Part shown: positions 12,280-38,225 of the stretch, one piece after another | Numbering within the stretch: the first letter of the stretch is position 1 | How the letters are laid out: every line of letters starts with the position of its first letter | Source of the DNA: Trueperaceae bacterium | Lineage (GTDB): Bacteria; Deinococcota; Deinococci; Deinococcales; Trueperaceae | Direction of reading: 5' to 3' | NCBI GenBank assembly: GCA_965213925.1 | Contig: OZ243927.1 | Span: 2,976,001 to 3,040,000, forward strand | DNA length: 64,000 nucleotides | The notes under the pieces: generated by a model | The model's database searches: none | What the model saw: only the letters and a program-made list of their open reading frames with translations | What the model was told of the DNA's origin: nothing | Program-made: the position numbers and the translations under genes

Positions 12280-13038
12280 ATGCCCACAACCATAGAACGC
12301 CCCAAAGACCAACAAGACGCCGTGAGCGCCCAAGCGCTCAGCAAGCGCTTTACTCTAGGCAGCGAGACCGTAGACGCGCTTATAGGCGTTGACCTCACCG
12401 TACCTAAGTCGGAGTTTTTGGCGGTGATGGGCCCCTCGGGCAGCGGCAAGAGCACCCTCTTACATATCCTAGGGCTCTTGGAGCAGCCCGACAAGGGCGA
12501 GGTCGTCTTGGACGGTCAGGTGACGAGCCACCTAAACGACGACGCGCTTACCCAGATTCGCCGCGAGCGCTTGGGCTTCATCTTCCAAAACTTCGAACTC
12601 ATCCCGAACTTGAGCGCCAAAGAGAATATCCTGTTGCCCGCAGAGGTCGCTGGACGCAAGAAGGAAGCGGAGCGGCGGTTAGAGAACCTAGCCGCGCAGC
12701 TCGGGTTGGAGAACCGCTTACACCACCGCCCCAACCAGCTTTCCGGTGGTCAGCAGCAGCGCGTGGCGATTGCCAGAGCGCTCATCAACGAGCCCGTCGT
12801 CATCTTGGCGGACGAGCCCACGGGCAACCTCGACACGAACACGGGCAACGAAGTGTTGGAACTTCTGCGGCGCGGCGTCCAAGAAGAGGGCTGGACCGTC
12901 ATCATGGTCACGCACGATCCCAAAGCCGCGCTTTTCGCCGAGCGCATCATCTTCTTGCGCGACGGGCGCGTCGTCGGCGAAACGCGCACGGACGATACCA
13001 ACGCGAGAGGTCGAATTGAGAATTTTGTCGGGGTGTAA
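12280..13038 (+). CDS. ABC transporter ATP-binding protein (LolD/MacB-like), no adjacent permease
   Basis: GPSGSGKST, LSGGQQQ, ADEPTGNLD. Confidence 0.92.
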   Translation: MPTTIERPKDQQDAVSAQALSKRFTLGSETVDALIGVDLTVPKSEFLAVMGPSGSGKSTLLHILGLLEQPDKGEVVLDGQVTSHLNDDALTQIRRERLGFIFQNFELIPNLSAKENILLPAEVAGRKKEAERRLENLAAQLGLENRLHHRPNQLSGGQQQRVAIARALINEPVVILADEPTGNLDTNTGNEVLELLRRGVQEEGWTVIMVTHDPKAALFAERIIFLRDGRVVGETRTDDTNARGRIENFVGV

Positions 13039-13081
13039 AGAAGTTTCGACTCCGTATCTCAGGCTTAGGCTAGCACAACCG

Positions 13082-13116
13082 AAAACGCCGTTCCTACAAT
13101 GGGGAACGGCGTTCTT
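13082..13116. terminator. Bidirectional terminator
   Basis: AACGCCGTTCC/GGAACGGCGTT stem between convergent genes. Confidence 0.7.
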
Positions 13117-13132
13117 GAAGTCGACCTCTTCC

Positions 13133-14026
13133 CTAACGCAGCAACCCCGACACCAGATTCTGCGCGGCGAAGTCTCGATCTAAGATGCCCGGTAAGCCGA
13201 GCGAAAAGCCGCCGACGAGCGCAAAGTCTAAACCTCTTCCCGCTTGTAACGTCGCCAGTTGCGAGGCGAGCGCAACCGGATTGATGTCCACCTGCAAACT
13301 CAGCGGCGCGTCTCCCCCAGCGGGCAACGCTTGCGTCACCGCTCGCCCGACGCCGACCCTTGCACCGCCTAGCCTCATATCCAGTTCGGGCGCGCGGAAG
13401 ACGTAGCCTAAAGGTGTGGGGTTGGACAGCTCGAGCCCTACCTCAACCGTCGCCCTGGTAAGCCCGACATCGCGCAGCCCCGACCTCTCGGAAACGAAAC
13501 GAATCTCGGGCGCAGCCAAGCGAATTGGCTGGGTGAGCGTGCCCGAGACGAGCGTCGCGCTCGGCAACGTTTGGCGCGTGCCCAAGACCTCTACAGCCAC
13601 CGTCCCGTCAACCCTGTAGCGCGTCGGCTCCCCGATGATGAGCCCCGCTAAGTCCGCGAGCAGGCTGACACCTCTTTCAAGCGGCACGTCTACCTCTAAA
13701 GGCAACCGAGTTGACCCGTTCGCCGCCAGCGTGAATCCTTCGGTAAATTGACTACTAACTGACCTCTTCCCATTGACAAAGAGGTCAAAGTCCAGCCCCG
13801 CCAACGAGAGCCTGAACGAATTCGGATTCTGCACCTCTAGGTTAAAGAGGAACGTCGCGCTCGGCGAGCCGACACCCGGCGGATTGAGGCGCACCAGCCC
13901 CGAGTCTTGAGTGAGGAGCTTAAACTTAGGCGCTTTGACGAGGTTGCTCGCGCCAGGAACGCAGGCGTTGAGGGGGAGCGCAAGCAGAAGAAGCGCGGTA
14001 ATCTGAACTATCGAGAGTCGTTTCAT
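13133..14026 (-). CDS. Lipoprotein with two LEA_2/WHy domains
   Basis: Lipobox LNAC; two NP(N/T) motifs (VQNPNSF, LSNPTPL) in repeated beta domains. Confidence 0.8.
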   Translation of the reverse strand: MKRLSIVQITALLLLALPLNACVPGASNLVKAPKFKLLTQDSGLVRLNPPGVGSPSATFLFNLEVQNPNSFRLSLAGLDFDLFVNGKRSVSSQFTEGFTLAANGSTRLPLEVDVPLERGVSLLADLAGLIIGEPTRYRVDGTVAVEVLGTRQTLPSATLVSGTLTQPIRLAAPEIRFVSERSGLRDVGLTRATVEVGLELSNPTPLGYVFRAPELDMRLGGARVGVGRAVTQALPAGGDAPLSLQVDINPVALASQLATLQAGRGLDFALVGGFSLGLPGILDRDFAAQNLVSGLLR

Positions 14027-14460
14027 GCGCCTAGCTTATCCGAGGCGTTTTTCGCATGGGTTGAAAAACCTTACGTTGCAACCTTTTGAGGCCTCGGTTC
14101 GCTAAAGTTCGCTGAGGGGTTGAGGTAGTCGAGTTTGAAATTATTGGCTAAGGGCAATGATACCTTTTATTTAACAAGAGGTAAAATTATTTCAAGACAA
14201 TCTGAAGTTAGCTTGCATGTTTTGTAGTTTGCACATTTCATTAACGTCGCAAAGCCACTTTACCTTGACGCTCTTTCTCGAGACCTGGTATATTTGCACC
14301 TTACAGCGCGGGTGAGTTCTGTTACGCCTGCTACAGTTTAAGAGGTCTACACAGCTTTACAGCGAAATCGACGTGCGCGTATAATGTCGCATATTTACAA
14401 CCTTTCCTCTCAACGGCTGTAGACCTGCGCGGCTCTACAACCCATCCTTTTAGGAGGCAC

Positions 14461-15327
14461 ATGGCACGCACCGTTAAAGGCGGTTTGATCCAAGCGTCGA
14501 ACCCCATTCCAGGAGACAAAGACCTTCAGAAGATCAAGCAGGCGATGATGGACAAGCACATCCCGCTGATCGAACAAGCGGGCAAACAGGGCGTCGAGGT
14601 CTTGTGCTTGCAAGAGATTTTCTACGGACCTTACTTCTGCCCCTCCCAAGACAGTCGCTGGTACACCACCGCCGAGCCGATTCCCGACGGCGAGACCACC
14701 CAGATGATGATGGAACTCGCCAAGCAGTACGGCATGGTCATCGTCGTACCGATTTACGAAGAGGAGATGACGGGCGTCTACTACAACACCGCCGCTGTGA
14801 TTGACGCGGACGGTAAGTATTTAGGCAAGTACCGCAAGACGCACATCCCGCAGGTCGCGGGCTTTTACGAGAAGTTCTTCTTCCGCCCCGGCAACCTGGG
14901 CTATCCCGTCTTCGATACGGCAGTCGGTAAAGTCGGCGTCTACATCTGCTATGACCGGCACTTTCCCGAAGGGGCACGGGCGTTGGGGCTCAACGGCGCG
15001 GAGATCGTCTTCAATCCGAGTGCCACCGTTGCAGGGCTAAGCGAGTATTTGTGGCGGCTCGAGCAACCCGCCCACGCCGTCGCCAACGGCTACTTCGTCG
15101 GCGCTATCAACCGCGTCGGACACGAGGAACCCTGGGACATCGGCGAGTTCTACGGTCAGAGCTACTTCGTCAACCCGAGAGGTCAGTTCGTCGCCGAGGG
15201 CAGCCGCGACCAGGACGAACTCATCGTCGCGGATTTGGATATGTCGATGGTGCGCGAGGTGCGGGATTTGTGGCAGTTTTATAGGGACAGACGCCCGGAG
15301 ACGTATGACGAATTGGTGGAGTTGTAG
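14461..15327 (+). CDS. Nitrilase-family beta-ureidopropionase (N-carbamoyl-beta-alanine amidohydrolase)
   Basis: E-K-C triad (LQEIF, YRKTHIP, ICYDRHFPE); first gene of the pyrimidine catabolism operon. Confidence 0.88.
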   Translation: MARTVKGGLIQASNPIPGDKDLQKIKQAMMDKHIPLIEQAGKQGVEVLCLQEIFYGPYFCPSQDSRWYTTAEPIPDGETTQMMMELAKQYGMVIVVPIYEEEMTGVYYNTAAVIDADGKYLGKYRKTHIPQVAGFYEKFFFRPGNLGYPVFDTAVGKVGVYICYDRHFPEGARALGLNGAEIVFNPSATVAGLSEYLWRLEQPAHAVANGYFVGAINRVGHEEPWDIGEFYGQSYFVNPRGQFVAEGSRDQDELIVADLDMSMVREVRDLWQFYRDRRPETYDELVEL

Positions 15328-15394
15328 GAGTGGCTAGTGAGTAGTGAAGAGTGACTAGATGCTGCTCTCCACTATTCACCCATCACTCTCCTAC
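15324..15394. repeat. Heptamer array with inverted arm
   Basis: TGGCTAG TGAGTAG TGAAGAG TGACTAG followed by the complementary CTATTCA CCCATCA CTCTCCT. Confidence 0.65.
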
Positions 15395-15401
15395 TTCTAC
15401 T

Positions 15402-16769
15402 ATGGACGGGACCCCTTTAGACCTCACCGACCTCGAGACTAGATTTACAGAGCTTAAACCGCCTATGTCGAAAAATGAGGCTCGAGTCGAAGCCAACCGC
15501 TGCTTGTACTGCTTCGACGCGCCCTGCATCACCGCCTGCCCGACCTCGATTGACGTGCCTACCTTCATCCGCAAAATCTCCACGGATAATGTTTTGGGCG
15601 CGGCGACAACCATCTTAGAAGCCAACCTCATGGGCGCGAGCTGTAGCCGCGTGTGTCCGGTTGAAGAACTCTGCGAGGGCGCGTGCGTGCTGACAAGCGA
15701 GCATAAACCCATCGAAATTGGTCGCTTGCAGCGCTACGCGATGGACTACGTATACGAGAAAGGTACGGTTCCTTTCAAGCCTGCGGAGAAAAACGGCAAG
15801 AGGGTTGCGATTATAGGCGCGGGACCTGCCGGGCTGACCTGTGCGGGCGAACTCGCTAAGCTCGGTTATGACGCTACCGTCTTCGAAAAGAACGATTTGC
15901 CAGGTGGACTCTCTACCTACGGCATCGTCGTGATGCGCGAGCCAATTCGCGTAGCGCTGCAAGAGGTTGAATTTGTCAAGAAGCTGGGCGTTGAGGTTAA
16001 GACGGGTGTCGCCATTGGGCAAGACATCACCGCCAATGACCTCTTGAACGACTACGACGCAGTGTTCATCGGTGCGGGGATGGGCAAGGTTCCGAACCTG
16101 GACATCCCTGGTGAGAATTTAGAAGGCGTTACCGAAGCCCTTTCTTTTATCGCAGAGACCAAACTCGCGGAGAAAGAAGGTTTAGAGCAGCTTAAAAATC
16201 TCCCTATCGGTCAACAGGTTGCCGTCATCGGCGCAGGCAATACGGCAATTGACGCGGCGACGATTGCGAAGAGGTTGGGCGCAGAGCGCGTCACCATCAT
16301 CTATCGCCGCAGCGAGTTAGAGATGCCCGCGTATACCTTTGAATACGACTTCATCAAAAATGAGGGCGTCGAGTTTAGGTTTTTGAATCAGCCGCTCGAG
16401 ATTCAAGGCGAAAACGGCGCGGTGACAGGCTTAAAGTGCGTCCGCATGGAGTTAGGCGAACCGGGCGAGGACGGACGCCGCCGACCCGTACAGGTTGAAG
16501 GCAGCGAGTGGGTTTTACCCTGCGACCACATCATCAAAGCGATCGGACAAGAAAAGCTCACCCCTCTTCACGAGGCGTTTGGGCTCGAGACCCAAAGCGG
16601 CTACATCAAAGTAGATGAAGCGCTCCGCACCTCTAACCCCAACGTTTTCGCGGGCGGCGACTGTATTCGTTTAGAAGGCGACGCGATGACGGTCACGGCA
16701 ACCGAGGATGGCAAAATCGCAGCGAGAAGTATCCATCAATGGCTCAGCGAGAGCCTTTCGGCAGATTAG
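15402..16769 (+). CDS. preT: Dihydropyrimidine dehydrogenase subunit PreT (GltD-like)
   Basis: RCLYCFDAPC..ACP, GAGPAG, GAGNTAID; adjacent to preA. Confidence 0.9.
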   Translation: MDGTPLDLTDLETRFTELKPPMSKNEARVEANRCLYCFDAPCITACPTSIDVPTFIRKISTDNVLGAATTILEANLMGASCSRVCPVEELCEGACVLTSEHKPIEIGRLQRYAMDYVYEKGTVPFKPAEKNGKRVAIIGAGPAGLTCAGELAKLGYDATVFEKNDLPGGLSTYGIVVMREPIRVALQEVEFVKKLGVEVKTGVAIGQDITANDLLNDYDAVFIGAGMGKVPNLDIPGENLEGVTEALSFIAETKLAEKEGLEQLKNLPIGQQVAVIGAGNTAIDAATIAKRLGAERVTIIYRRSELEMPAYTFEYDFIKNEGVEFRFLNQPLEIQGENGAVTGLKCVRMELGEPGEDGRRRPVQVEGSEWVLPCDHIIKAIGQEKLTPLHEAFGLETQSGYIKVDEALRTSNPNVFAGGDCIRLEGDAMTVTATEDGKIAARSIHQWLSESLSAD

Positions 16770-16780
16770 GAGGTGAGGAA

Positions 16781-16843
16781 GCTAGTCAGCTAGTCAGCCA
16801 GTCAGCACTTCAGGGTTTTCCTGATTAGCTGACTGGCTGAAGT
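16781..16843. repeat. Octamer array with inverted arm
   Basis: CTAGTCAG CTAGTCAG CCAGTCAG CACTTCAG, then CTGATTAG CTGACTGG CTGAAGT. Confidence 0.8.
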
Positions 16844-16884
16844 CCAGTCAAGCTGGATGAACGATGCTGAGTTGCTTATCCTTT

Positions 16885-18240
16885 ATGGCTGACCTTTCCA
16901 TCAACTTCGCAGGCATCAAGTCCCCCAACCCCTTCTGGCTCGCCTCCGCCCCGCCGACGAACACCGCCTATCAGGTCAACAAGGCGTTCGAGTACGGCTG
17001 GGGTGGCGCGGTCTGGAAGACCATCGGGGAGCCCGTTTTGAACGTCTCGTCGCGCTACGGCGGCTTCGAGTACAGCGGCAATAAGCTCGTGGCGATCAAC
17101 AACGTCGAACTGATTTCGGATAGACCTCTTGAAACGAATTTGCGAGAGATCAAAGAGGTCAAAGAACTCTGGAGTGACCGCGCCGTCATCGCCTCCGCGA
17201 TGGTGGCGTCCGAGCCGAAAGCGTGGCACGACATCATTCAGAAGATCGAGGACACGGGCGCGGACGGCATCGAACTCAACTACGGCTGCCCGCACGGGAT
17301 GAGCGAGCGCGGCATGGGCGCGGCGGTGGGGCAAGTGCCCGAATACTGCTCGATGATTACCGAGTGGGTGACGGACGTGGCGAGCATCCCCGTGATTGTC
17401 AAACTCACGCCGAACGTGACCGACATCGGCAAGCCTGCGCAGGCTGCTGTGAAGGGCAAAGCGGACGCCCTCTCACTAATTAACACCATCAATTCTATCG
17501 TCGGGGTGGATTTGGACAGTTTTCAACTCGAGCCCAATATCGGCGGCAAAGGCTCCCACGGCGGCTATGCGGGTCCGGCGGTGAAACCCGTCGCCTTGCA
17601 CCTCTTGTCCGTCGTCGCGAATGATGAAGAGGTGCAGCGGGCGAACTTGCCCATCTCCGGGATGGGTGGCATCCAGACCTGGCGCGACGCCGCTGAATTT
17701 CTACTTTTAGGTGCGACGAGTTTGCAAGTTTGCACGGCGGTCATGCACTACGGCTTTCGCATCATCGAAGATTTGACGGACGGACTTTCGAACTGGTTAG
17801 ACGAGAAAGGCGCGGCGTCGGTGAATGAAATTATCGGGGCGTCGGTGCCGAGAGTAAGCAGCTTCGGTGACTTCGATCTCAGCTACAAAGTCGTTGCCCG
17901 CATCAACCCCAAGACTTGTATCAACTGCAACCTCTGTTACGTCGCCTGCGATGAGGGAGCGCATCAGTGTATTGACCTCACGGTAGACGGCGCGAAAATC
18001 GACCCCGCGACCTATACAGGAAGTGTTAAGCCGCAGCCCGTCGTGCGCGAACAAGATTGCGTCGGCTGTAACCTCTGCTCATTGGTGTGTCCAGTGGACG
18101 AATGCATCTCGATGGTGGAAATGCCGCCGGAGCATGAAAGTGTTACCTGGAACGAGTTGAGCACGAATAAGCCGGAGGTGACGCGGGACTGGGAGGCGAT
18201 GGAGCGGTATCGGAAAGAGGTTGGGATAGACATACATTAG
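16885..18240 (+). CDS. preA: Dihydropyrimidine dehydrogenase subunit PreA
   Basis: NPFWLASAPP, ELNYGCPHGM, KLTPN; two C-terminal 4Fe-4S motifs. Confidence 0.95.
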   Translation: MADLSINFAGIKSPNPFWLASAPPTNTAYQVNKAFEYGWGGAVWKTIGEPVLNVSSRYGGFEYSGNKLVAINNVELISDRPLETNLREIKEVKELWSDRAVIASAMVASEPKAWHDIIQKIEDTGADGIELNYGCPHGMSERGMGAAVGQVPEYCSMITEWVTDVASIPVIVKLTPNVTDIGKPAQAAVKGKADALSLINTINSIVGVDLDSFQLEPNIGGKGSHGGYAGPAVKPVALHLLSVVANDEEVQRANLPISGMGGIQTWRDAAEFLLLGATSLQVCTAVMHYGFRIIEDLTDGLSNWLDEKGAASVNEIIGASVPRVSSFGDFDLSYKVVARINPKTCINCNLCYVACDEGAHQCIDLTVDGAKIDPATYTGSVKPQPVVREQDCVGCNLCSLVCPVDECISMVEMPPEHESVTWNELSTNKPEVTRDWEAMERYRKEVGIDIH

Positions 18241-18296
18241 GACTGGGAGAAAAGGACTGGGAGAAAAGGACTGAGTGAAGAGGACTGAGAGGTTGA
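18239..18296 (+). repeat. Heptamer array, left arm of the four-helix-bundle cassette
   Basis: GACTGGG AGAAAAG GACTGGG AGAAAAG GACTGAG TGAAGAG GACTGAG. Confidence 0.9.
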
Positions 18297-18300
18297 AGGC

Positions 18301-18681
18301 GTGAGTGAGAAGGTTAGTCGTTTTGAAGAGCTTGTGGCTTGGCAGAAGGCTCGAGCTTTGACTAAGTCGGTTTATCAAGTCACTAAGCGCGGTGACTTCG
18401 CTAAGGATTTTGGTCTGACAAATCAGATACAGCGAGCAGCGGTCTCAGTTATGTCGAATATTGCTGAAGGATTTGAGCGTGGGCGCCGCGCCGAATTTCA
18501 TCAGTTTTTATCTGTCGCTAAATCCTCTTGCGGAGAGGTAAGATCACAACTCTACGTCGCTCTGGATGTTGGCTACCTCCAAAAATCGACCTTTGACAAC
18601 CTTATGTCTCAAGCGGAAGAGGTATCACGAATCGTGGGCGGGTTCAGAGCCGCAGTACAAAAGCAGCGAGAGAAAAGTTAA
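18301..18681 (+). CDS. Four-helix-bundle protein (23S rRNA IVP / TIGR02436-like)
   Basis: FEEL.AWQKA, DFGL..QI.RAAVSV.SNIAEG.ER, F..FL..AK.S..E..SQL. Confidence 0.92.
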
Positions 18682-18752
18682 AAGGACTGAGGACTGAGAG
18701 AAAAGAGATTTTACTCAGTCCTCAGCACTCAGTCCTTTTCTCTTCTCAACCT
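18681..18752. repeat. Heptamer hairpin, right side of the four-helix-bundle cassette
   Basis: GACTGAG GACTGAG AGAAAAG..CTCAGTC CTCAGCA CTCAGTC CTTTTCT. Confidence 0.9.
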
Positions 18753-18778
18753 ACTCTTTCCCCACATAGGAGGGCATT

Positions 18779-20152
18779 TTGAGTTTGCTTATCCGCAACG
18801 CCGACATCATCACCGCCGACTCGCGTATGACCGCTGACATCTACTGCGAAGGCGAAACCATTACCCGCATTGGGCAAAACTTAGATGTTTCCGCCGATGA
18901 GGTCATCGACGCCTCGGGCAAATACGTCTTCCCCGGCTTCATCGACCCGCACGTCCACATCTACCTCCCTTTCATGAGCACCTACGCCAAAGACTCCCAC
19001 GCGACGGGCAGCCGCGCCGCGCTCATGGGCGGCACGACGACCTTCATCGAGATGTGTGCGCCGAACAAGGGCGAAGACCTCTTAGAAGGTTACGAGTTGT
19101 GGAAGGGCAAAGCGGAGGGCGAGAGCGCGTGCGATTACACCTTTCACATGGGCGTCTCTAAGTTCGACGATAAGAGCGAAAAACAACTTCGTGAAATTGT
19201 CGCGGACGGTATCTCATCGTTCAAGGTCTTTTTAGCGTACAAGGGCTTTTTCGGCGTGAACGACGAAGAGCTTTTCAAGGCACTGACGCTCGCTAAAGAA
19301 CTCGGCGTCATCGTCACCGCGCACTGCGAGAACCCCGAACTCGTGGCGCAGCTTCAAACGAAGCTCTTAGAGGAGGGCAAAACCGGACCCGGCTACCACG
19401 AGCCGAGCCGTCCCGAATGGGTGGAGGCGGACGGGACGCATCACTTCGCGACCTTTTTGGAGGCGACGGGCGCGAAGGGGTACGTCGTTCACCTCTCGTG
19501 TGCACCTGCCCTAAAAGCGGCGCTAGACGCGAAAGCGAGAGGGGTAGACCTCTCTATCGAGGCGGTGATTCCGCACCTCTTGTTGGATAAAACGCTCGCT
19601 GAGCAGGACGGGTTAGAGGGTGCGAAGTACGTGATGTCGCCGCCCTTGCGGAAGAAGTCGAATCAGAAAGTTCTGTGGGACGCGCTGGCGCAAGGGTTTA
19701 TCGACACCGTCGGCACGGACCACTGCCCCTTTGACACGGAGCAAAAAGAGATGGGGCTGGACGACTTTACGAAGATTCCGAATGGGATTCCGGCTTTAGA
19801 AGACCGCGTCAAACTCCTCTACACCTACGGCGTGAGTCGCGGCGGTTTGGATGTGCACCGCTTCGTGGAGGCAGCCTCGACCAAAGCCGCTAAGTTATTC
19901 GGGCTCTTTCCGCGCAAAGGGACGATTGCGGTAGGGAGCGACGCCGACTTGGTGATTTATGACCCGAACGCAGAAGATACGATTTCGGCGCAAAGTCAAA
20001 CGATGAACGTCAACTATAGTGGGTTTGAAGGGACAGAAGTAGACGGGCGCGTTAAGACAGTGACGGTAAGAGGTAAGGTACAAGTTAAAGAGGGTGAGTT
20101 CGTCGGTGAGCAGGGGTGGGGAACGCTACTAAAACGTGAGGCGGGCGCTTAG
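18779..20152 (+). CDS. hydA: Dihydropyrimidinase
   Basis: PGFIDPHVH, SFKVFLAY, HCEN, SPPLR, TDHCPF. Confidence 0.95.
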   Translation: MSLLIRNADIITADSRMTADIYCEGETITRIGQNLDVSADEVIDASGKYVFPGFIDPHVHIYLPFMSTYAKDSHATGSRAALMGGTTTFIEMCAPNKGEDLLEGYELWKGKAEGESACDYTFHMGVSKFDDKSEKQLREIVADGISSFKVFLAYKGFFGVNDEELFKALTLAKELGVIVTAHCENPELVAQLQTKLLEEGKTGPGYHEPSRPEWVEADGTHHFATFLEATGAKGYVVHLSCAPALKAALDAKARGVDLSIEAVIPHLLLDKTLAEQDGLEGAKYVMSPPLRKKSNQKVLWDALAQGFIDTVGTDHCPFDTEQKEMGLDDFTKIPNGIPALEDRVKLLYTYGVSRGGLDVHRFVEAASTKAAKLFGLFPRKGTIAVGSDADLVIYDPNAEDTISAQSQTMNVNYSGFEGTEVDGRVKTVTVRGKVQVKEGEFVGEQGWGTLLKREAGA

Positions 20153-20823
20153 GTGTTGGCTTTCGCTTCTAGCTCCCCTACAAACCTCTCGTGCGCTTCG
20201 CTTTTTAGAGCATTTTGCAGCGTCATCATGACTTGCATGTCATCCTCGAGCAGCGCCCTTGTATCAAGCACAAGCCCCGGAAAGGTGCGGCTTTCCAAAA
20301 TTCCGTCTTTGGGCTCGAGCCTCACATACCTCTCTTCATCCAACGCAAACCAGTCGAACGCGCTATCCTCCACCCGCCACACTAGATATTCTTTCACCCC
20401 GTTACGGCGGTACGCGCGGAGTTTGTCGTGCAAATCGTAGGAGGCGGTGTTTGAAGCGATTTCGACCACTAACTCGGGCGGACCTTCGATGTAGTCATCC
20501 GCGCTCACAGAAGAGGTTCCGCCGACTTTGGGCTCGAGCCTTAGAAGCGCGTCGGGCTGAGGTTCATTGTCCATATCCAAGCGAACGGTTGCATTATCCG
20601 AGATGGACGAAAACGGTGTGGCTATCTCATAGGCTCCTAACCACATGACGATGCGAGTATGAGGATGACCATGTCTTTGATGACGAACAGGAGACGGCAC
20701 GTAAACAACCCCTTCGATGAGTTCGGCTTTTTTAAGGCGCGGCGTAGCGTGATAGCGCCGCTCGAACTCCGCACGGGTGAGTCTGTCGCCGTTCGCCAGT
20801 ATGGGAATATCTGCTACGACCAT
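20149..20823 (-). CDS. Uma2 family (PD-(D/E)xK) endonuclease
   Basis: AELIEGVV, QPDA, PELVVEIA, K..AY...GVKEY; start placed 6 nt after TAAAAT. Confidence 0.9.
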   Translation of the reverse strand: MVVADIPILANGDRLTRAEFERRYHATPRLKKAELIEGVVYVPSPVRHQRHGHPHTRIVMWLGAYEIATPFSSISDNATVRLDMDNEPQPDALLRLEPKVGGTSSVSADDYIEGPPELVVEIASNTASYDLHDKLRAYRRNGVKEYLVWRVEDSAFDWFALDEERYVRLEPKDGILESRTFPGLVLDTRALLEDDMQVMMTLQNALKSEAHERFVGELEAKANT

Positions 20824-20863
20824 GTACATATTTTACGACATTTCGAATCTATGAGGTATCCGC

Positions 20864-21658
20864 TTGATTGCTACTGAACCCAAGAAAGACGTTCAAACCG
20901 TCATCAGTATCCGCGACCTCAACATGGTTTATACGGGGCGCGGTACGGAAACCGTCGCGCTCAAAAAGGCCAACCTAGAAATTAGAGAGGGCGAATTCAT
21001 CTCGCTCATCGGTCCGTCGGGCTGCGGCAAAACAACCCTTCTGCGCCTTATCGCCGACCTCATCCAGCCGACCTCGGGCGAAATTACGGTGACGGGCAAG
21101 ACGCCCCAGGAAGCGAGAGAACGCCGCGAATACGGTTACGTCTTCCAGGCTCCGGTGCTATACGATTGGCGGACCGTGCTCAAAAACGTGACGCTACCCT
21201 TAGAGATTATGAATTTCTCTAAAGCAGAGCGTAAGGAGCGGGCGGCAGAGTTACTCGAGATGGTCGGCTTGCGAGACTTCCACCATCAATATCCCTGGCA
21301 GCTTTCGGGTGGAATGCAGCAGCGCGTTTCGATTGCAAGGGCGCTCGCCTTTGACCCCAAACTCCTCTTGATGGACGAACCTTTCGGCGCACTGGACGAA
21401 ATCACCAGAGAGCAGATGAATCACGAACTCTTGACGATCTGGCAGGAAACGAAAAAGACCGTCGTCTTCGTCACCCACTCCATCGCCGAAGCCGTCTTCC
21501 TCTCCTCACGCATCATCGTGATGACGCCGCGCCCCGGCAAAATCGAGCAGGTGATCCCGGTGGACTTGCCTTATCCGAGAGATAACGATACAAGAGAATC
21601 GAAGGAATTTTTCGACTTAGCAACCGAAGTGCGTGAGTCTTTGAGAGGGGTTCACTGA
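20864..21658 (+). CDS. ABC ATP-binding protein (TauB/SsuB-type), probable pyrimidine importer
   Basis: GPSGCGKT, LSGGMQQR, DEPFGALD. Confidence 0.93.
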   Translation: MIATEPKKDVQTVISIRDLNMVYTGRGTETVALKKANLEIREGEFISLIGPSGCGKTTLLRLIADLIQPTSGEITVTGKTPQEARERREYGYVFQAPVLYDWRTVLKNVTLPLEIMNFSKAERKERAAELLEMVGLRDFHHQYPWQLSGGMQQRVSIARALAFDPKLLLMDEPFGALDEITREQMNHELLTIWQETKKTVVFVTHSIAEAVFLSSRIIVMTPRPGKIEQVIPVDLPYPRDNDTRESKEFFDLATEVRESLRGVH

Positions 21659-23049
21659 TGAGGACTGAGGAAAAAGGACTGAGGACTGAGAGAAAAGAGA
21701 AAAACTCAGCACTCAGTCCTCAGTCCTTTTCTCTTCTCAAGTTTTTACCCTCATTCAAAAGCTATCTCCCGGTGTTCGCAGTGCTGACCCTGCTCATCCT
21801 CTTAGGCTATCCCCTCGCCCTCGTGTTCGGGCTACCTCTCGCCTACCGCGACATGCAAGACATCAGGAAGTGGGAAAAAGAGATCGTCACCGAGCGTCAA
21901 CCGCTTCAGGGAGAGGTCAATGGTGAAAATCGCACCTTCACCTTCCCTGCAAACAACCTTGTGGAAAACGACAGCGGGCGGACGCTTTTAGTGAACGACA
22001 CGCCGCTCACCTATGACGCCGAACGACCTGAAGAACGGGTAGATGGAGAAACGCGAACCTTTACCTTTGAGAGTCAGTCGGGACTGGTGACGTTGGATAG
22101 GCGGTTTTTGGAAGAGGGGGAGAACTTCTCCAGAAATGCCAACATCCTCACCTTTTCACGCCCACCGCCGCGCAACGCGCAGCTCAGGCAGTATCCAGAT
22201 TACGCGGTGACGAATCCAGCACAGGGAGAGGTCACGCTGGCGGAGGCTCCACCTGTAGGCTCGAGCCTCGCCACCGACCAATACACCTTTTACGCGAGAC
22301 CGAGCTGCGGGGCGAACGTGCTCGAGTGCTTTTTCGCCTTGCCACAGCACCCCGTCCCCTTTCCCCACTGGATTGCGGCGGGCGTCGCGCCCTTCTTTAG
22401 CAAGTATCCCTTTACGGACGAGCGCAACGTGGTGAGAGCGACGCTTTATACGGCGCTTGGAACGTCGGCGGCGTTGGCGTTGGGGGGAGCGGTGGGGATT
22501 ATCTTGGCGGTGCTCTTTGTACTTTTGAGACCGCTCGAGCGTGCCCTCTTGCCCTGGGTCATCGCCTCGCAGACCGTCCCCATCATCGCGCTCGTGCCCG
22601 TGCTGCTCCTCGTGTTGGGTAACTTCGGCATCACCATTCAGACGAGTATTTTGCCCACTGCGATTATCGGCGCGTACATCGCGTTCTTTCCTGTTGTCGT
22701 CGGCACTGTAAAAGGTCTGCGCTCGGTGGACCCGCTCGCCCTAGACCTCATGCGCTCGTACGCTGCCTCACCGCGTCAAGTTTTTACGAAGGTACGTTTT
22801 CCAGCTGCCGTACCCTTCTTCTTTACCTCTCTCAAACTGGGAACCGCCGCCGCCTTGGTCGGCGCACTCGTCGCGGAAACCGAATCGAACAATCGGCGCG
22901 GGCTGGGCTTTCAGATTTTGGGTCAAGTGCAGTCGGGTAACGTCGCGGATGTGTGGATTTTGCTGCTCATCTCGGCGCTTCTGGGCGTCGGCTTAGTGGC
23001 ACTCGTTGGCTTGATGCAGCGTTTGATTGCACCTTGGGAGCGGACGTGA
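21658..23049 (+). CDS. ABC permease with repeat-derived N-terminus and inserted beta-rich extracytoplasmic domain
   Basis: C-terminal TauC/SsuC-like permease (QTVPIIAL, FFPVV, GL.SVD); TGATG coupling to the ATPase gene. Confidence 0.85.
   Translation: MRTEEKGLRTERKEKNSALSPQSFSLLKFLPSFKSYLPVFAVLTLLILLGYPLALVFGLPLAYRDMQDIRKWEKEIVTERQPLQGEVNGENRTFTFPANNLVENDSGRTLLVNDTPLTYDAERPEERVDGETRTFTFESQSGLVTLDRRFLEEGENFSRNANILTFSRPPPRNAQLRQYPDYAVTNPAQGEVTLAEAPPVGSSLATDQYTFYARPSCGANVLECFFALPQHPVPFPHWIAAGVAPFFSKYPFTDERNVVRATLYTALGTSAALALGGAVGIILAVLFVLLRPLERALLPWVIASQTVPIIALVPVLLLVLGNFGITIQTSILPTAIIGAYIAFFPVVVGTVKGLRSVDPLALDLMRSYAASPRQVFTKVRFPAAVPFFFTSLKLGTAAALVGALVAETESNNRRGLGFQILGQVQSGNVADVWILLLISALLGVGLVALVGLMQRLIAPWERT
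21659..21740. repeat. Gene-less copy of the heptamer hairpin, in frame within the permease
   Basis: GACTGAG GAAAAAG GACTGAG GACTGAG AGAAAAG AGAAAAA CTCAGCA CTCAGTC CTCAGTC CTTTTCT CTTCTCA; near-identical to 18681-18749. Confidence 0.9.
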
Positions 23050-24155
23050 CCTCTTCCGTAAAGCCGATTTGGACGGCGCTCGCCGCGTCTCTCATTGCAC
23101 CGGTTGGGCTCTTCGGACCTCTTAGCAGTGGCGTGGGTGCATTCAGCGTCACGCTACTCGTTCTCGGACTTCTCTCGCTCATCGGCGCAACAGTCGGACG
23201 CTTCTGGTTTGCAGTTGCGCTCGTTCCTGTCGGGCTTCTTGGTGCATTTGCAACGGTTCTGTCGCTGATGAACACAAATGGTGAAGGAGCATGGGGTTTC
23301 TGGTCACTCCTTTGGGGCTTTCTCTTCATCTCTATATTCGCGGTTGGACGAGTGAGTACAGACGAGACGACCTCTTCCCTCGAGACCCGCTTAAAGATAC
23401 TTTTACCCTCCGCCTCCGTCCCCTTCCTATTCCTCCTCATCTGGCAAGGTCTCGTTGTCGGCTACGGCGTGCCGAAAGGGATTTTCCCGAGTGTCGTGGA
23501 CGTGTGGCGCTCGCTCACAGCTTCGTTCAGCGTGCTCCTTTCAGACGCTTACGTCACCTTCATCAAAGAGGTCTTGCTCGGCTTCGCGGTTGGGCTGACG
23601 ATGGGCTTTTTGGCGGGCGTCGGCATCGCCTTTAGCACCTTTTTGCGGCGCGGCTTTTTACCTCTCGCTGCCGCCTTCGGTGCGGTACCCATCGTCGGAC
23701 TTGCGCCTGTGTTGGGGCGAGCCTTTGGCGTGGATTGGGAATCGAAAGCGGCGGTTGTGGTCATCGTGACCTTCTTTCCGGTGGTGCTCAACACGGTGCA
23801 GGGGCTCGTGTCGGTGGACGCGCTCAAACTCGAGCTGCTCCGCGCCTACGCCGCCACCCCCCGAGAAGTGTTTTTCAAACTCCGCTTGCCGAATGCTCTC
23901 CCCTACCTCTTCAACGCCCTCAAACTCGCCGCCGTTTTAGCCGTCATCAGCGTCATCGTCGCGGAGTTCTTGATTCCAGGTCCGCCCGAAGGATTGGGGC
24001 AGCGGATTTCTCTCTCAGCACGGCGCGGGGCATATGACGTGGTGTTTGCGGCGATTTTTGTCTCGAGCGTCATCTCTATCGCCATCTACGGGGCGCTCGC
24101 CTGGTTGGAGCGGCGCTTGACTGGGTGGCATTCGTCGTTTAGGGAAGGAAGGTAG
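23046..24155 (+). CDS. ABC permease (TauC/SsuC-type)
   Basis: GTGA overlap with the previous stop; FFPVVLNT..GL, KLRLPNALP. Confidence 0.9.
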   Translation: MTSSVKPIWTALAASLIAPVGLFGPLSSGVGAFSVTLLVLGLLSLIGATVGRFWFAVALVPVGLLGAFATVLSLMNTNGEGAWGFWSLLWGFLFISIFAVGRVSTDETTSSLETRLKILLPSASVPFLFLLIWQGLVVGYGVPKGIFPSVVDVWRSLTASFSVLLSDAYVTFIKEVLLGFAVGLTMGFLAGVGIAFSTFLRRGFLPLAAAFGAVPIVGLAPVLGRAFGVDWESKAAVVVIVTFFPVVLNTVQGLVSVDALKLELLRAYAATPREVFFKLRLPNALPYLFNALKLAAVLAVISVIVAEFLIPGPPEGLGQRISLSARRGAYDVVFAAIFVSSVISIAIYGALAWLERRLTGWHSSFREGR

Positions 24156-24197
24156 AAGTCAGGATGAAGAGTTGAGAAGTCAGCAGTCAGAAGTCAG
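24154..24197 (+). repeat. Heptamer array
   Basis: AGAAGTC AGGATGA AGAGTTG AGAAGTC AGCAGTC AGAAGTC, starting at the permease stop codon. Confidence 0.8.
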
Positions 24198-24258
24198 TGG
24201 AAAGCGCCAAACCTCTTTCGCCCATCTCTCGTTCGCGTCATCTCATAGGAGGAAAACC

Positions 24259-25308
24259 ATGAAAAAAAACTTACTCACTCTCGCCGCGCTTCTCTTTTCT
24301 ATCACGTTCGCCCAAGACCTCATCCCCGTGACCTTTCAGTCGAAGTGGTTTCCGCAGGCGCAGTTTGCGGGGTACTTCGTGGCGATTGACCAGGGGTTTT
24401 ATGAGGAAGAAGGCTTAGAGGTCACGGTCTTGGACGGCGGCAACGTCAACCCGACGGTGCAGGTCGCCTCGGGTAACGCTGACTTCGGGACGGACTGGAT
24501 TGCCAATATGTTGGTGCAGCGCGAGCAGGGGCTCGAGGTGGTGCAAATCGCGCAGATTTACCAGGACTCGGGCTACCGGATGGTGTCGCTGCAAGACTCG
24601 GGCATCGAGACTTTTGCTGACTTAGCCGGGCGGCGCGTGGGCGTGTGGGGCTTCGGCAACGAGTTCGTCGCGCAGGCTGTGTTCGACGTGGAGGGCTTAA
24701 CTTCCGACCTCGACCCGACGACGAGCAACCCCGATGTGAACGCGGTCGTGTACGCCTTTGACCCCGCGCTCGTCTTTCCGAATGAGGTGGACGTCGCCTC
24801 GGTCATGACCTATAACGAACTCGATCAGATTGTCGGACTTGGGTACGAATTGGACAACCTGAACATCTTAGACCCCTCAGAAATCGACGCGGAACTCCTA
24901 GAAGACCTCATCTTTACGACGCCGGAGTTATTGGAGAGCGAAGACTTCAAAGGCTCGGGCGTCTCCGGGCAAGAGGTCGCGGAGCGCTTTTTGCGGGCGA
25001 CGATTCGCGGCTGGGAGGTCGCGGTGGAGAACCCGGCGGAAGCCGTCGAAATCGTGCTCGGCTATTGCGGCGATACCTGTGCGGGGTCGGGGAGCACCTC
25101 GAGCCCCGAAATCCACCAGTCCTGGCAGATGGACCGCGTCGCCGAACTCGTCAGACCGAGTGAGGATACGGAAATCGGTGCGCTCAGCGAAGAGGCGTTC
25201 AATAAGTCGGTTGAGTTGCTCGTGCAAGTCGGGCTGATTAACGAGGCGCTCTCTTATGGAGAGATCGTGAACTCGAGCGTCTACGAAGCGGTGAGCGGCG
25301 CGGAATAG
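24259..25308 (+). CDS. ABC substrate-binding protein, NMT1/THI5-like
   Basis: AGGAGG RBS; signal peptide; KWFPQAQFAGYFVA...GFY.EEGL. Confidence 0.9.
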   Translation: MKKNLLTLAALLFSITFAQDLIPVTFQSKWFPQAQFAGYFVAIDQGFYEEEGLEVTVLDGGNVNPTVQVASGNADFGTDWIANMLVQREQGLEVVQIAQIYQDSGYRMVSLQDSGIETFADLAGRRVGVWGFGNEFVAQAVFDVEGLTSDLDPTTSNPDVNAVVYAFDPALVFPNEVDVASVMTYNELDQIVGLGYELDNLNILDPSEIDAELLEDLIFTTPELLESEDFKGSGVSGQEVAERFLRATIRGWEVAVENPAEAVEIVLGYCGDTCAGSGSTSSPEIHQSWQMDRVAELVRPSEDTEIGALSEEAFNKSVELLVQVGLINEALSYGEIVNSSVYEAVSGAE

Positions 25309-25323
25309 GCAACGCTGACACGA

Positions 25324-25355
25324 AAGGCGTACACTGGTTGTGCGCCTTATTTTAT
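25324..25355 (+). terminator. Rho-independent terminator
   Basis: AAGGCGTACA/TGTGCGCCTT stem plus T-rich tail. Confidence 0.6.
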
Positions 25356-25491
25356 CTCGCGTCACGGGTTTCATCTGATTGAAATGTATAGAACGGTCCA
25401 CTGACCGAAACAAATAGCGCTTAGCCGAACGGTAAGACATTCGCACAGCTCGAGTATAACGCTCAAAATCATCATATTAGAGGAGGCTTTT

Positions 25492-26802
25492 ATGATTTCC
25501 ACTAAGAACCGCACCGACGAACTCCTAGACCGCCAAAAGGAGTACCTCTTCCCCATCCAGAGCAAGATGCTTCTCTACGGCGATGAGCCTTTAGCCGTCT
25601 CCCACGCCAAAGACCAGTTCGTCTGGGACGTGGAGGGCAATAAATATTTAGACTTCTTCGGCGGTATCCTCACCGTGTCAGTAGGTCACGCTAACGAAGA
25701 GGTCACAGCGGCGGTTATCGAGCAGCTTCTCCGCGTGCAGCACACCTCGACGCTCTACATCAACGAAATTACGATTAAAGTCGCAGAAAAAATTGCGAAG
25801 TTGACACCGGGACGCTTGCAGCACTGCTTTTTTACGAGCAGCGGCACAGAGGCCGACGAAACTGCGATTCTCGCCGCGCGGATGTACACGGGCAACACCG
25901 ACATCATCGCGCTTCGTCACGCTTACTCGGGCCGCTCGGTCAGCATGATGAGCATGACCGCGCACGGCACGTGGCGTTTGGGCGGCGTGTTCGACGGGGC
26001 GATTAAGCACGTCCGCAACCCCTACACCTACCGGATGCCTGCGGGGATGAACGAGGAGCAGTTTTTAGACTTCTTGGTGGACGACCTTAAAGAGATGATC
26101 GCGACCTGCACGAACGGCAGAATCGCCGCGTTCATGGCGGAGCCGATTCAAGGGGTGGGCGGCTTTGTGGTTGCGCCGCAGGACTATTTTCAGCGCATCT
26201 TGCCCGTTGTAAGAGAGGCGGGCGGACTGCTGATTATCGATGAGGTTCAAACGGGCTGGGGGCGTACGGGTGGGCACATGTGCGGCATCGAGCATTGGGG
26301 CGTGGAGCCTGACATCATGACCTTTGCCAAAGGAATCGCCAACGGTGCGCCCGTGGGCTGCACCATCGCGACGCCCGAAGTGGCAGAGGCGGTGAACGGG
26401 CTCACACTGGCAACCTTTGGCGGCAACCCGGTGGCGATGGCGCAGGCGTACGCGACGATTGAATACATCGAGGAGAACAAGCTCTGGGAGAACGCCGAAA
26501 AGCAAGGCGCAAAGCTGCGTGAGCGCATGGAAGAGATGCGGACCCGTTACCCCTTCTTAGGCGATGTGCGCGGGATGGGGCTGATGCAAGCCTTTGAGAT
26601 CGTGCAGCCAGACGGGAGCAAAGAGCCCGACAGTGCGCGGACGGCGGCATTTGTCAATACAGCGCGGAAGCAGGGACTCCTCATTGGCAAAGGCGGACTC
26701 TACAGCAATGTAGTTCGGATTGCGCCGCATCTGAATGTTTCGGATGAAGACACGGACAAGGGTTGTGAGCTGATGGAGGCGGCGCTTGAAGAAGTAGCGT
26801 GA
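25492..26802 (+). CDS. Class III aminotransferase, probable beta-alanine transaminase
   Basis: YLDFFGG, SGTEA, EPIQG.GG, DEVQTGWGRTG, AKG; follows the pyrimidine operon. Confidence 0.85.
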   Translation: MISTKNRTDELLDRQKEYLFPIQSKMLLYGDEPLAVSHAKDQFVWDVEGNKYLDFFGGILTVSVGHANEEVTAAVIEQLLRVQHTSTLYINEITIKVAEKIAKLTPGRLQHCFFTSSGTEADETAILAARMYTGNTDIIALRHAYSGRSVSMMSMTAHGTWRLGGVFDGAIKHVRNPYTYRMPAGMNEEQFLDFLVDDLKEMIATCTNGRIAAFMAEPIQGVGGFVVAPQDYFQRILPVVREAGGLLIIDEVQTGWGRTGGHMCGIEHWGVEPDIMTFAKGIANGAPVGCTIATPEVAEAVNGLTLATFGGNPVAMAQAYATIEYIEENKLWENAEKQGAKLRERMEEMRTRYPFLGDVRGMGLMQAFEIVQPDGSKEPDSARTAAFVNTARKQGLLIGKGGLYSNVVRIAPHLNVSDEDTDKGCELMEAALEEVA

Positions 26803-32672: not shown

Positions 32673-33971
32673 CTACGGACAAGACGCCACTCGAGCGTAG
32701 TACCCTTCTCGCACCTCTTCCAAGCTCGTCGTCCGGGTTGCGTAGCCGAGCCAGCGGTACGAGCCTCTCGCGGAGTAGCTCTCCCAGGGCTCGAGCCCGA
32801 TCTGAACCGCCCGGTCTGCGGCGTAGTGCGCGGCGTTCGTGTCCGTCCAGCAGGTTACGTTTCCGTCATCACCGCCACCATCACCGTCACCATCACCGCC
32901 ATCGTCCCCGCCTCCATTGTCGCCACCATCCTCACCCGCTTCCGCGACGATGCCCCAAAAACGCCCGATGTAGTAGCTCGAGCAGATGTTCACGTCTAAG
33001 ATGTACGCCCCCGCCTGTCCGCATTCTGCCTCCGCTGAGCCGGGATCAACGGGTGTGCCGTGCCCCATGCCCGTCAAGCTGTAGGTTTCGACCACGTCTA
33101 CGCCGTCCTTTTGGTAGACCTTATGCGGGTAGCCCTCTACCGTGTCCGACACGTCGGCTTGCTGGTCCGCGCCGTGCACGTTCGTCCACTGCTCCATTGC
33201 CTCTCGCAAATTTGCGTCTCTCACGGTATAGTCCGCGTCGCCGTGCCAAATGGAGACCTTCGGCTGAGGACCCGAATAGTTCGATGCACCTCTTACCAAG
33301 TCGCCCCAAGCCTTCGGCGTTTTGTTCGCGCCAGGGTTCATGCAGCTAAAAGCGTTCACCAGACCCACGCCGCACCTGTACGGTCCGCCTGCGATGACGC
33401 CGCCGCCCGCGAACACGTCGGGATACGTCGCCAGCATCACCGTCGTCATGAAGCCGCCCGCCGAGAGACCCGTGACGAAAACGCGCTCCGAATCGAGACC
33501 GTAGTCTGAGACCATTTTGTTCACCATCCGCTTAATGGAGAGCGGCTCACCCGCACCTCTACGGATGTCGCCGGATTCGAACCAGTTGAAACAGGCATTT
33601 TGGTTGTTGGCGCTCTTCTGCTCAGGGAAGAGGAGGGCGAAGCCGTCCTTATCCGCGTATTTCGCCCAACCCGCGCCGTTCGCGTAGACGCTCGCGGACT
33701 GCGTGCAGCCGTGCAGTGCGACGACGAGTGGCGCGTTCGTAGGTAGATTATTCGGCACGTAGCGGAACATGCGCAGGTTGCCGGGGTTGGAGCCGAAATT
33801 GGCGACTTGCTCTAACGTCACCACCTGGGTTGTCAGTTCAGCCGAGAGGTCTGAATCTGACGCACACGCACTGAGAACGAGCAGGCATAATATGAATAAA
33901 CATAACAGGTAGTTTAGCGAACGAAACGAAAAACGGTCCACACCCATCACCTCATCTTTCGCGGTATTCAT
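32673..33971 (-). CDS. Extracellular PHB-depolymerase-family esterase lipoprotein with C-terminal substrate-binding domain
   Basis: Lipobox LSAC, NPGNL, LHGCTQ, GLSAG, WHG.AD, GMGH; Gly/Asp linker; N..H....RA..GS..LG domain. Start uncertain. Confidence 0.88.
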   Translation of the reverse strand: MNTAKDEVMGVDRFSFRSLNYLLCLFILCLLVLSACASDSDLSAELTTQVVTLEQVANFGSNPGNLRMFRYVPNNLPTNAPLVVALHGCTQSASVYANGAGWAKYADKDGFALLFPEQKSANNQNACFNWFESGDIRRGAGEPLSIKRMVNKMVSDYGLDSERVFVTGLSAGGFMTTVMLATYPDVFAGGGVIAGGPYRCGVGLVNAFSCMNPGANKTPKAWGDLVRGASNYSGPQPKVSIWHGDADYTVRDANLREAMEQWTNVHGADQQADVSDTVEGYPHKVYQKDGVDVVETYSLTGMGHGTPVDPGSAEAECGQAGAYILDVNICSSYYIGRFWGIVAEAGEDGGDNGGGDDGGDGDGDGGGDDGNVTCWTDTNAAHYAADRAVQIGLEPWESYSARGSYRWLGYATRTTSLEEVREGYYARVASCP

Positions 33972-38213: not shown

Positions 38214-38225
38214 AAGGTTAAAGAG

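Follow-up and report, generated by a model that had tools for sequence, protein, structure and literature searches.

The window analysed here is a stretch of 64,000 nucleotides (C1:2976001-3040000) from the genome of a Trueperaceae bacterium (hereafter G000; 4.75 Mb, 58.4% G+C). It contains, at the junctions between co-directional genes, tandem arrays of short units in which the dinucleotide AG returns every 7 nt, and one of these junctions also holds a gene for a four-helix-bundle protein of the PF05635 family. We consider it likely that a single class of short elements, existing in two forms, has these arrays as its arms, and that the period and the AG are under constraint. In the gene-less form, the element would be a hairpin with a 5' arm made of 7-nt (rarely 8-nt) units beginning with AG and a complementary 3' arm, some copies consisting of a lone arm. 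In the full form, of which 18239-18760 is the example in the window, the PF05635 gene would lie between the two arms, in the layout of the 23S intervening sequences that bear an open reading frame (ORF), but placed between protein-coding genes. The elements would be located directly behind stop codons in co-directional gene strings, and the gene would ride on host transcription.

Linkage of the gene and the arrays

The gene of the cassette (18301-18681, plus strand) encodes a protein of 126 amino acids that matches Pfam PF05635 (E 1.9e-37, 128.1 bits for a cut-off of 33.8) and NCBIfam TIGR02436 (E 2.9e-34, 117.6 bits for a cut-off of 24), as well as entry 2gsc of the Protein Data Bank (PDB; E 4.6e-15). 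In the predicted minimum-free-energy fold (551 nt), positions 18259-18277 and 18726-18744 form a stem that encloses the ORF and an inner hairpin (z -3.5). The cassette is flanked by protein-coding genes and not by 23S rRNA, namely those of a DHO_dh/Fer4-type dehydrogenase subunit and of an amidohydrolase, and the other two copies in the genome also lie between protein-coding frames. The genome thus has three PF05635 genes, all of them within AG-phased inverted arrays. The three paralogues are mutually 26 to 35% identical, two of them (p2 and p3) giving no BLAST match to each other.

The same association is found in other bacteria. Scanning a single genome from each species gave 80 relatives of the protein, 57 to 75% identical and belonging to 13 named phyla, 73 of them with full flanks. 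A run of at least four AG at period 7 is present upstream of the gene in 62 of these 73 relatives, compared with 0, 1, 2 and 0 at periods 5, 6, 8 and 9. Downstream, 54 have a run of at least four CT, and 50 have both; control windows within the same loci gave 16 of 731. Among phased dinucleotides upstream of the 73 relatives, AG (62) comes before GA (43), TG (41) and GT (39), and phased TGAG occurs in 29. The gene is co-oriented with its upstream neighbour at 66 of the 73 loci, which fits a promoter-less gene riding on host transcription.

Among 61 genomes of the same phylum, the number of helix-bundle genes correlates with the number of period-7 matches (Spearman 0.55 with AG, 0.70 with its reverse, GA), and all 7 genomes that reach 50 AG matches carry the gene, against 17 of 54 below that number; these genomes are related, hence not independent in such statistics. 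The linkage of gene and arrays is strong, in cis as well as across genomes, and the co-occurrence of the arrays with the helix-bundle family, on which the initial annotation of this DNA had made its reading depend, is borne out. Relatives of the protein are also present on 30 of 72,556 plasmid records, mostly cyanobacterial, and none of 50,697 phage records matches it at E 1e-5.

Compared with its counterpart in the same-genus genome G058, the helix-bundle gene has a dN/dS of 0.055; dS is 1.30, against 0.47 for the neighbouring genes. In Calidithermus chliarophilus the gene stands at the same junction; the proteins next to it share 71% and 74% identity with those of the window, the gene product 63%. 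The gene has thus kept its place at a single junction in two families of the phylum. Judged from these sequence comparisons, the protein is under strong purifying selection, and the gene appears functional and long-held.

Enrichment of period 7 and of AG

The search for runs was made in a rough non-coding set of 803,654 nt, which still includes uncalled genes, visible as a period-3 signal. In this set, runs of at least four AG number 155 at period 7 (156 for CT), against 20 to 51 at the other periods from 4 to 11 and about 20 expected; the runner-up dinucleotides at period 7 are AA (56), GC (54) and GA (52). For runs of at least five AG or CT, we counted 171 at period 7 and 38 at period 8, while periods 5, 6, 9 and 10 gave between 3 and 7 (listed singly as 7, 4, 5 and 5). 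Run lengths of 4 and 5 show the greatest excess over the control periods. The array pattern therefore exceeds chance, and period-7 AG is enriched genome-wide, as the initial annotation required of its reading; the initial observation is confirmed, and its interpretation is supported in part. Over all non-coding DNA, the global lag-7 autocorrelation shows no peak (0.2575, compared with about 0.25 to 0.26), because the arrays make up too small a fraction of a set that also retains uncalled genes.

To avoid circularity, arrays were also detected without reference to AG, by requiring at least 14 matches of 21 at lag 7. This gave 207 arrays, against 47 to 80 at the other lags within 5 to 10. AG was the best-kept dinucleotide in 98.6 of the 207, followed by AA with 27.2, and its retention across units was 0.69, against 0.38 to 0.64 for other dinucleotides. 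The AG-phased runs contain 617 distinct heptamers, whose positions 3 to 7 are nearly free when each type is counted once. The initial annotation had supposed that the period and the dinucleotide, rather than the full unit, are selected. Within this genome the data agree with that supposition, as do those of G058, where the left arm of the cassette keeps 8 in-phase AGs with different inner bases; as a statement about the protein family it fails for AG, as described below.

Anatomy and placement of the hairpins

At loci of the two-arm type, the AG arm precedes the CT arm in 91 cases and the reverse order was never found. Of 82 non-coding two-arm loci, 66 pass a complementarity threshold of 12 in 14, against 1 of 82 in the control. 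Starting from 160 single-arm seeds, a complementary partner was found on the expected side for 63, on the opposite side for 1, and not at all for 96. This brings the totals to 129 strict hairpins (145 by arm order) and some 96 unpaired arrays, part of which will be chance matches. The purine-arm-first rule is real but strand-symmetric, since the reverse complement of a hairpin again puts a purine arm first. The right arms starting with CT, initially taken as a grammar of their own, are merely the complement of the left arms and as such do not constitute independent evidence.

With respect to genes, the 145 hairpin spacers comprise 105 co-directional, 23 convergent and 17 divergent ones, for a background of 1847, 520 and 646 (n = 3013), and hairpins are thus rarer between divergent genes (chi-square about 9.5, 2 degrees of freedom). 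Genome-wide, arrays stand at median distances of 13 and 15.5 nt from the stop, and at the six sites first named in the window the distance ranges from -17 to +3 nt. In co-directional spacers, the element is closer to the stop in 70 of 105 cases and to the next start in 34 (p = 9e-5, on rough gene calls). Elements are probably transcribed together with the host operon.

This placement invites the idea that the hairpins are RNA elements of the host: terminators, attenuators, or 3' stabilisers resembling the repetitive extragenic palindromic (REP) sequences, setting the levels of operon segments, with the A-rich and T-rich outer units acting as tracts. Besides the proximity to stops and the scarcity between divergent genes (17 of 145, against 646 of 3013), the stable predicted stems (z -3.5 to -5.4), the right arms often trailed by TTTTCTCTT, and the presence of an element, of differing sequence, at every operon junction in both G000 and G058 speak in its favour. 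However, a scan for consensus terminators flagged none of the hairpins, although its loop and stem limits may exclude them. At 25324-25348, after the binding-protein gene, the scan did pick up a hairpin resembling a classical terminator, T run included; unlike the heptamer hairpins, this one is nearly identical in G058. Terminators at five successive junctions of one catabolic operon would also be odd, and both a terminator and a REP-like role could do without the 7-nt phase, the AG and the linked protein gene. The elements do resemble REP sequences and bacterial interspersed mosaic elements (BIME) in forming hundreds of short palindromes in spacers past stops, but the REP-associated Y1 transposase (RAYT, PF01797) has no match in this genome, while 6 of 14 control genomes match; REP elements are not known to be made of phased tandem units. 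We regard a role of this kind as unlikely to be the explanation.

Another proposal would account for both AG and the purine-first polarity: the purine arm could end translation, whatever the frame, before the ribosome reaches the stem. Because 7 is coprime with 3, a TGA or TAG overlapping the AG (TG followed by AG, or T followed by AG) hits all three frames within three units, and an element inserted at or inside the end of a gene would always stop translation ahead of its stem. Stops are indeed found in at least two frames in 99 of 121 purine arms, against 56% after shuffling, and in all three frames in 32 of 121, against 12%; 53 of 121 pyrimidine arms have no stop at all. Among 927 units, the commonest stops are TGA overlapping AG (240) and TAG (92), and two arrays of the window begin with the AG of a stop TAG. 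Yet only 589 of the 927 units contain a stop, only 26% of arms have one in all frames, and frequent units such as AGCAACG, AGAGAAA and AGAAGCA are stop-free. As the gain over shuffles is modest and partly compositional, we find a translation-stop function improbable.

A candidate reader of the arrays

Several features of the PF05635 family suggest what might act on such arms. The PDB relatives 2gsc and 2rld have five chains each, and the family protein of Xanthomonas is described as a toroidal homopentamer in the passages of PMC4990558 that deal with it. At the 73 relatives, the commonest length of the AG run is also five, both upstream (30 of 73, with 10 each at four and six) and downstream (24 of 73). 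The AG-phased arm, in single-stranded form, could be the binding site of the toroidal homopentamer; each subunit would read one AG (often TGAG) per 7 nt, and binding would compete with hairpin formation at the junctions. By analogy with known ring-shaped RNA-binding proteins, we tentatively favour, among the possible mechanisms, binding of the pentamer to the single-stranded form of the AG-phased arm, in competition with the hairpin. The fuller proposition is rather doubtful, namely that the PF05635 pentamer is a reader of periodic motifs, one AG (TGAG) per subunit every 7 nt and five per arm, having reached a HutP- or TRAP-like code independently, on a four-helix-bundle scaffold. If true, a handful of protein genes would control hairpin formation at hundreds of operon junctions, and a first function would be at hand for the proteins of rRNA intervening sequences, for stand-alone Avd-like proteins and for the dispersed heptamer repeats of bacteria.

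The initial annotation had compared the presumed reader to TRAP, whose oligomeric ring reads (G/U)AG triplets at intervals along single-stranded RNA. The idea of a ring remains attractive, as the family forms ring pentamers, but TRAP is not the best analogy: it has 11 subunits and spacers of 2 to 3 nt, hence a period of 5 to 6, where the period here is 7. HutP provides a closer one. In the text of PMC2425495 that bears on it, HutP is a ring-like hexamer which recognises only the A and the G of three XAG motifs, separated by a U4 spacer, on each face, and which melts a terminator hairpin. An NAG followed by a 4-nt spacer, as at the hut terminator of Bacillus subtilis, gives precisely a period of 7 (PMC2425495). 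The fold of HutP is unrelated, however, and its hexamer reads three plus three motifs at one regulatory site, whereas we deal here with a family of pentamers, a modal number of five motifs and hundreds of sites. The identity of the spacing might also mean that a true TRAP or HutP homologue, encoded elsewhere in the genome, reads the arrays. Neither PF09021 (HutP) nor PF02081 (TRAP) has a match in the assembly, which is 96.9% complete, while both are matched by the Bacillus subtilis control, so that a homologue of this sort is extremely improbable.

A number of observations weigh against a reader and against a general constraint on AG. The gene is lacking in 5 of the 21 phylum genomes that have at least 20 period-7 matches. 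The commonest unit of G000, AGCAATG, with 219 occurrences, adjoins no helix-bundle gene in this genome. An arm length of about five units is explicable equally well by limits on palindrome length, and the family protein of Coxiella is reported to be decaying and probably not made (PMC4990558, in its account of that sequence). The gene calls are rough, with over-extended starts and some genes missed, including the helix-bundle gene itself. As to the strand, the first description had placed the AG phase on the sense strand and predicted a strand bias, which did not hold up: a hairpin looks the same from either strand, and of the unpaired arrays in co-directional spacers 27 are sense and 25 antisense. 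Fold stability favours the sense strand in 57 and the antisense strand in 48 of 105 co-directional hairpins (p = 0.57; a noisy comparison, since 90-nt flanks are included). With no strand bias and equal folds, nothing marks the sense RNA as the ligand.

The last objection comes from within the phylum. At 20 further loci, 19 of which encode proteins 30 to 41% identical to that of the window, inverted arrays of short units again stand on either side of the gene, mostly at period 7 (three at period 8), but an upstream run of at least four AG is present at only 4 of the 20. The units found in place of the AG types include GTCCTAC, GGCAGAA and AAGGGTCT. Since the three divergent paralogues of G000 are all AG-armed, compared with 4 of 20 elsewhere, AG tracks the genome no less than it tracks the protein. 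In a quick tree built from the 80 relatives, the class of arm unit requires 35 changes, against 41.3 when shuffled (5 of 500 shuffles as low), a weak tracking, while host phylum requires 25 against 46.4. Among named phyla, AGGACTG recurs in 7 and AGTGCTG in 6. Units follow the protein so weakly that we see no sign of cognate pairs of a protein clade and a whole unit, and claim none. We conclude that the period is the general invariant, and that AG/TGAG is a trait of this genome and of the subfamily to which the window's protein belongs.

We also noted that period-7 GA, the reversed pattern, exceeds AG in several genomes of the phylum, for example G021 (132 GA against 38 AG), G002, G023, G045 and G036. 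The helix-bundle genes of the GA-rich genomes are flanked by GGCAGAA, GATGGAT or AAGGGTCT octamers.

Turnover between close relatives

The operon of the window is syntenic in G058, at 82 to 88% DNA identity. The helix-bundle gene is at the same junction there, two other junctions of the operon hold hairpins of other families, and all junctions are occupied in both genomes, with differing sequences. For arrays lying within 300 kb of the helix-bundle gene, 7 of 40 could be anchored on both sides in a 400-kb stretch of G058; they are described locus by locus, being too few for rates. One has an identical core, three persist but have diverged or changed in size by whole units, and three are absent or replaced. 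The homologue of the array at 24154 is shorter and diverged in G058, and that of the array at 38215 is longer. Turnover of the elements between close relatives is thus fast, yet their period and in-phase AG are preserved.

Two further differences were noted between the two genomes. The hairpin family of 16776-16841 is carried one junction upstream in G058, whose orthologous junction has an AG-phased heptamer hairpin instead. At about 3330-3750 of a locus on contig C4 of G058, orthologous to 15328-15411 of the window, some 400 extra bases with an open frame are present that the window lacks.

Such a turnover could be expected if the arrays had no reader at all. They would then be selfish or neutral hairpin repeats, whose AG and period were inherited from a founder and kept uniform by slippage, by gain and loss of units and by exchange between arrays, the genes merely lodging there. 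The variation by whole units between the two same-genus genomes, the swapping of hairpin families at orthologous junctions and the fates of the seven anchored loci all agree with this scenario. So do the array-rich genomes without the gene, the predominance of GA over AG in other genomes of the phylum, and the fact that AG follows the genome, three mutually dissimilar paralogues being AG-armed here. Slippage alone, however, would copy all seven positions equally, and the unequal retention inside the unit (0.69 for AG, against 0.38 to 0.64 elsewhere) counts against it. In addition, a core of the TGAG type recurs in 13 phyla while the unit type flips often on the protein tree, and the strong purifying selection on the protein, together with the holding of the gene at one junction in two families, is not what simple lodging would leave. 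The absence of any reader is in our view somewhat unlikely.

Relation to intervening sequences and other known systems

Processing by RNase III is the accepted fate of rRNA intervening sequences, and the stems described here may be regarded in the same way: a cut in the stem would free the helix-bundle transcript and split the operon mRNA. The best precedent is the 23S intervening sequence of Coxiella burnetii, as described in the sections of PMC4990558 devoted to it, where the inverted termini form a 28-bp stem with an ORF in the loop, tandem GACAGAT heptamers are present, and RNase III cuts in the stem. ORF-bearing 23S intervening sequences are named there also for Leptospira, Xanthomonas and Brucella (PMC4990558). 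The likeness is considerable, since in both cases a PF05635 ('S23p') gene is looped out by a stem of inverted termini (a predicted one here), tandem heptamers adjoin the gene, and GACAGAT, whose copy number varies between strains, also gives AG every 7 nt (PMC4990558).

The predicted stems, of at least 19 bp, speak for such a role. Nevertheless, no RNase III domain was found in G000, an assembly 96.9% complete, either with PF14622 or with PF00636 at E values up to 0.1, and PF14622 has no match in any of the 61 genomes sampled from the phylum, against matches in 8 of 14 control genomes. Long stems within operons would therefore escape cutting by this enzyme here. RNase III would moreover explain neither the 7-nt phase nor the AG. 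On this profile evidence, RNase III processing appears nearly excluded in this genome, and as an explanation of the elements it is very improbable. Other features also separate these elements from the 23S intervening sequences: they lie between protein-coding genes and not in rRNA helix 25 or 45, they exist as hundreds of gene-less copies in a host without an RNase III domain match, and the protein is under purifying selection, in contrast with its decay in Coxiella (PMC4990558, same account).

Dispersed heptamer repeats have long been noticed in bacteria, and the cyanobacterial short tandemly repeated repetitive (STRR) sequences are of this kind. The TAACTGA repeats (MacGregor 2015) of Beggiatoaceae, Cyanobacteria and Bacteroidetes share with our arrays the organisation into short intergenic 7-nt tandem arrays and the patchy spread across phyla (PMC4679880). 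They are, however, direct repeats placed by start codons (169 direct sets, 1 indirect), whereas ours are mostly inverted pairs past stops and are linked to PF05635. A single-strand-binding protein was proposed as the reader of TAACTGA (PMC4679880), and a term search in the same paper returned no mention of four-helix-bundle, 23S or S23 proteins.

PF05635 resembles Avd, the accessory protein of diversity-generating retroelements (DGR), from a comparison of structures 4DWL and 2GSC given in the relevant part of PMC10053308. Although Avd is thus a homologous pentameric four-helix-bundle protein, there is no reverse transcriptase beside any of the three genes, nor a template/variable repeat pair among the ORFs of 13000-26000. 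Four copies of RVT_1 exist in the genome (C1:291528, 2670406, 3430718 and 3475506), all at a great distance from the window and the two other helix-bundle genes. Their frames, 618 to 637 amino acids long, score identically and suggest a retroelement present in several copies, for instance a group II intron.

In the open-access literature, taken without supplements, we found no paper tying gene-less heptamer hairpins to PF05635, nor any that describes the packaging outside the rRNA intervening sequence of Coxiella. The elements extend a known kind, as cassettes similar to intervening sequences, with gene-less derivatives, outside rRNA. What is new here is the quantified grammar of AG and period with its limits, the polarity rule, the modal number of five motifs, the phylum-wide lack of RNase III and the analogy with HutP. 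If the elements form a single class, three puzzles would be joined: the heptamer repeats dispersed in bacterial genomes, known since the STRR sequences, the very large PF05635 family including the Avd relatives of DGRs, and the ORF-bearing rRNA intervening sequences. To these, the present genome adds about 240 gene-less copies beside three gene-bearing ones, with their period of 7, in-phase AG, purine arm first and five motifs. The system persists in a phylum without an RNase III match, so that the usual account of such stems is removed, and the function of the family becomes a direct question of binding, with a defined ligand and negative controls.

Sites in the window

A profile search of the ORFs identified a co-directional gene string at 14461-26802, encoding a carbon-nitrogen (CN) hydrolase, two subunits of the dihydropyrimidine-dehydrogenase type, the 126-aa PF05635 protein (18301-18681), an amidohydrolase, an ABC ATPase, two permeases, an NMT1-type binding protein and an aminotransferase. 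In what follows, a strict run means AG (or CT) spaced by exactly 7 nt, and ORF ends are those of a program-made ORF list; hairpins are given without a strand. Arrays are present at all six sites that the initial annotation had named, and the first in-phase AG is located, relative to the stop codon, successively at +2, inside TAG, -17 (within the 3' end of the helix-bundle gene), +3, inside TAG, and +2.

The first hairpin (15324-15394) lies 2 bases past the stop of the CN-hydrolase gene. Its purine-rich arm (15329-15358) contains 5 AG in AGTGNNN units and is followed by the pyrimidine-rich arm; the predicted RNA fold has an energy of -31.5 kcal/mol (z -3.7), and 0 of 200 shuffles were as good. 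Between the two dihydropyrimidine-dehydrogenase-type genes, a site that the first list did not include (16776-16858) consists of 8-nt units, (AGCTAGTC)3 plus the complement, with a second, small hairpin behind them. The hairpin proper, (AGCTAGTC)n, covers 16776-16841, with 3.4 copies at period 8 according to TRF and a predicted fold of -44.8 kcal/mol (z -4.8).

The left, outer array of the helix-bundle cassette (18239-18312, plus strand) is purine-rich, is made of AGGACTG/GGAGAAA units and overlaps the GTG start of the gene. Its phase starts at the AG of the stop TAG (18239); counted by eye, 6 of 8 in-phase positions are AG and 2 are GG, and the strict runs, of 4 and 4 AG, lie in 18267-18312. 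On the other side of the gene, 18662-18760 comprises the inner hairpin, with an AG arm at 18662-18705 (7 AG) and a CT arm at 18714-18743 (5 CT), and the outer pyrimidine-rich tail; its predicted fold is -30.6 kcal/mol (z -3.5). Array and gene overlap at 18662-18681, where the first units of the AG arm encode the last residues of the helix-bundle protein (...QKQREKS). A further hairpin (21659-21739) stands 3 bases past the stop of the ABC ATPase gene. Its arm of AGGACTG/AGAGAAA units (21661-21697) has 6 AG and its CT arm (21705-21734) 5 CT, for a predicted fold of -42.7 kcal/mol (z -5.4).

The two remaining sites of the first list turned out to be unpaired. At 24154-24204 (plus strand), a purine-rich array has 8 in-phase AG, counted from the AG of a stop TAG, in units AGAAGTC, AGCAGTC and others. 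It has no complementary arm and folds no better than shuffles (z +1.0). At 38215-38291 (plus strand), a purine-rich array with 5 AG (38215-38244) is followed by a non-complementary heptamer array of the GCTAAT type; the complementarity reaches only 9 of 14, and no fold beyond shuffles is predicted (z +1.8). Another unpaired AG-phased array (49384-49413, plus strand), with 5 AG in AGCAACG/AGCGATG units, lies in a spacer between divergent genes.

The starts of the longest ORFs at 15351, 21658 and 24172 fall within arrays. The true starts are probably further downstream, with an ATG at 15403 and another at 24260, the latter behind AGGAGG, and automatic annotation may over-extend genes into such arrays. 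Two other tandem repeats of the window stand outside the AG-phased family: 45238-45293, with 3.1 copies of the 18-nt unit CCAAGCTAACCAGACCAA, and 32863-32930, of the CATCAC type with 6/12-nt units.

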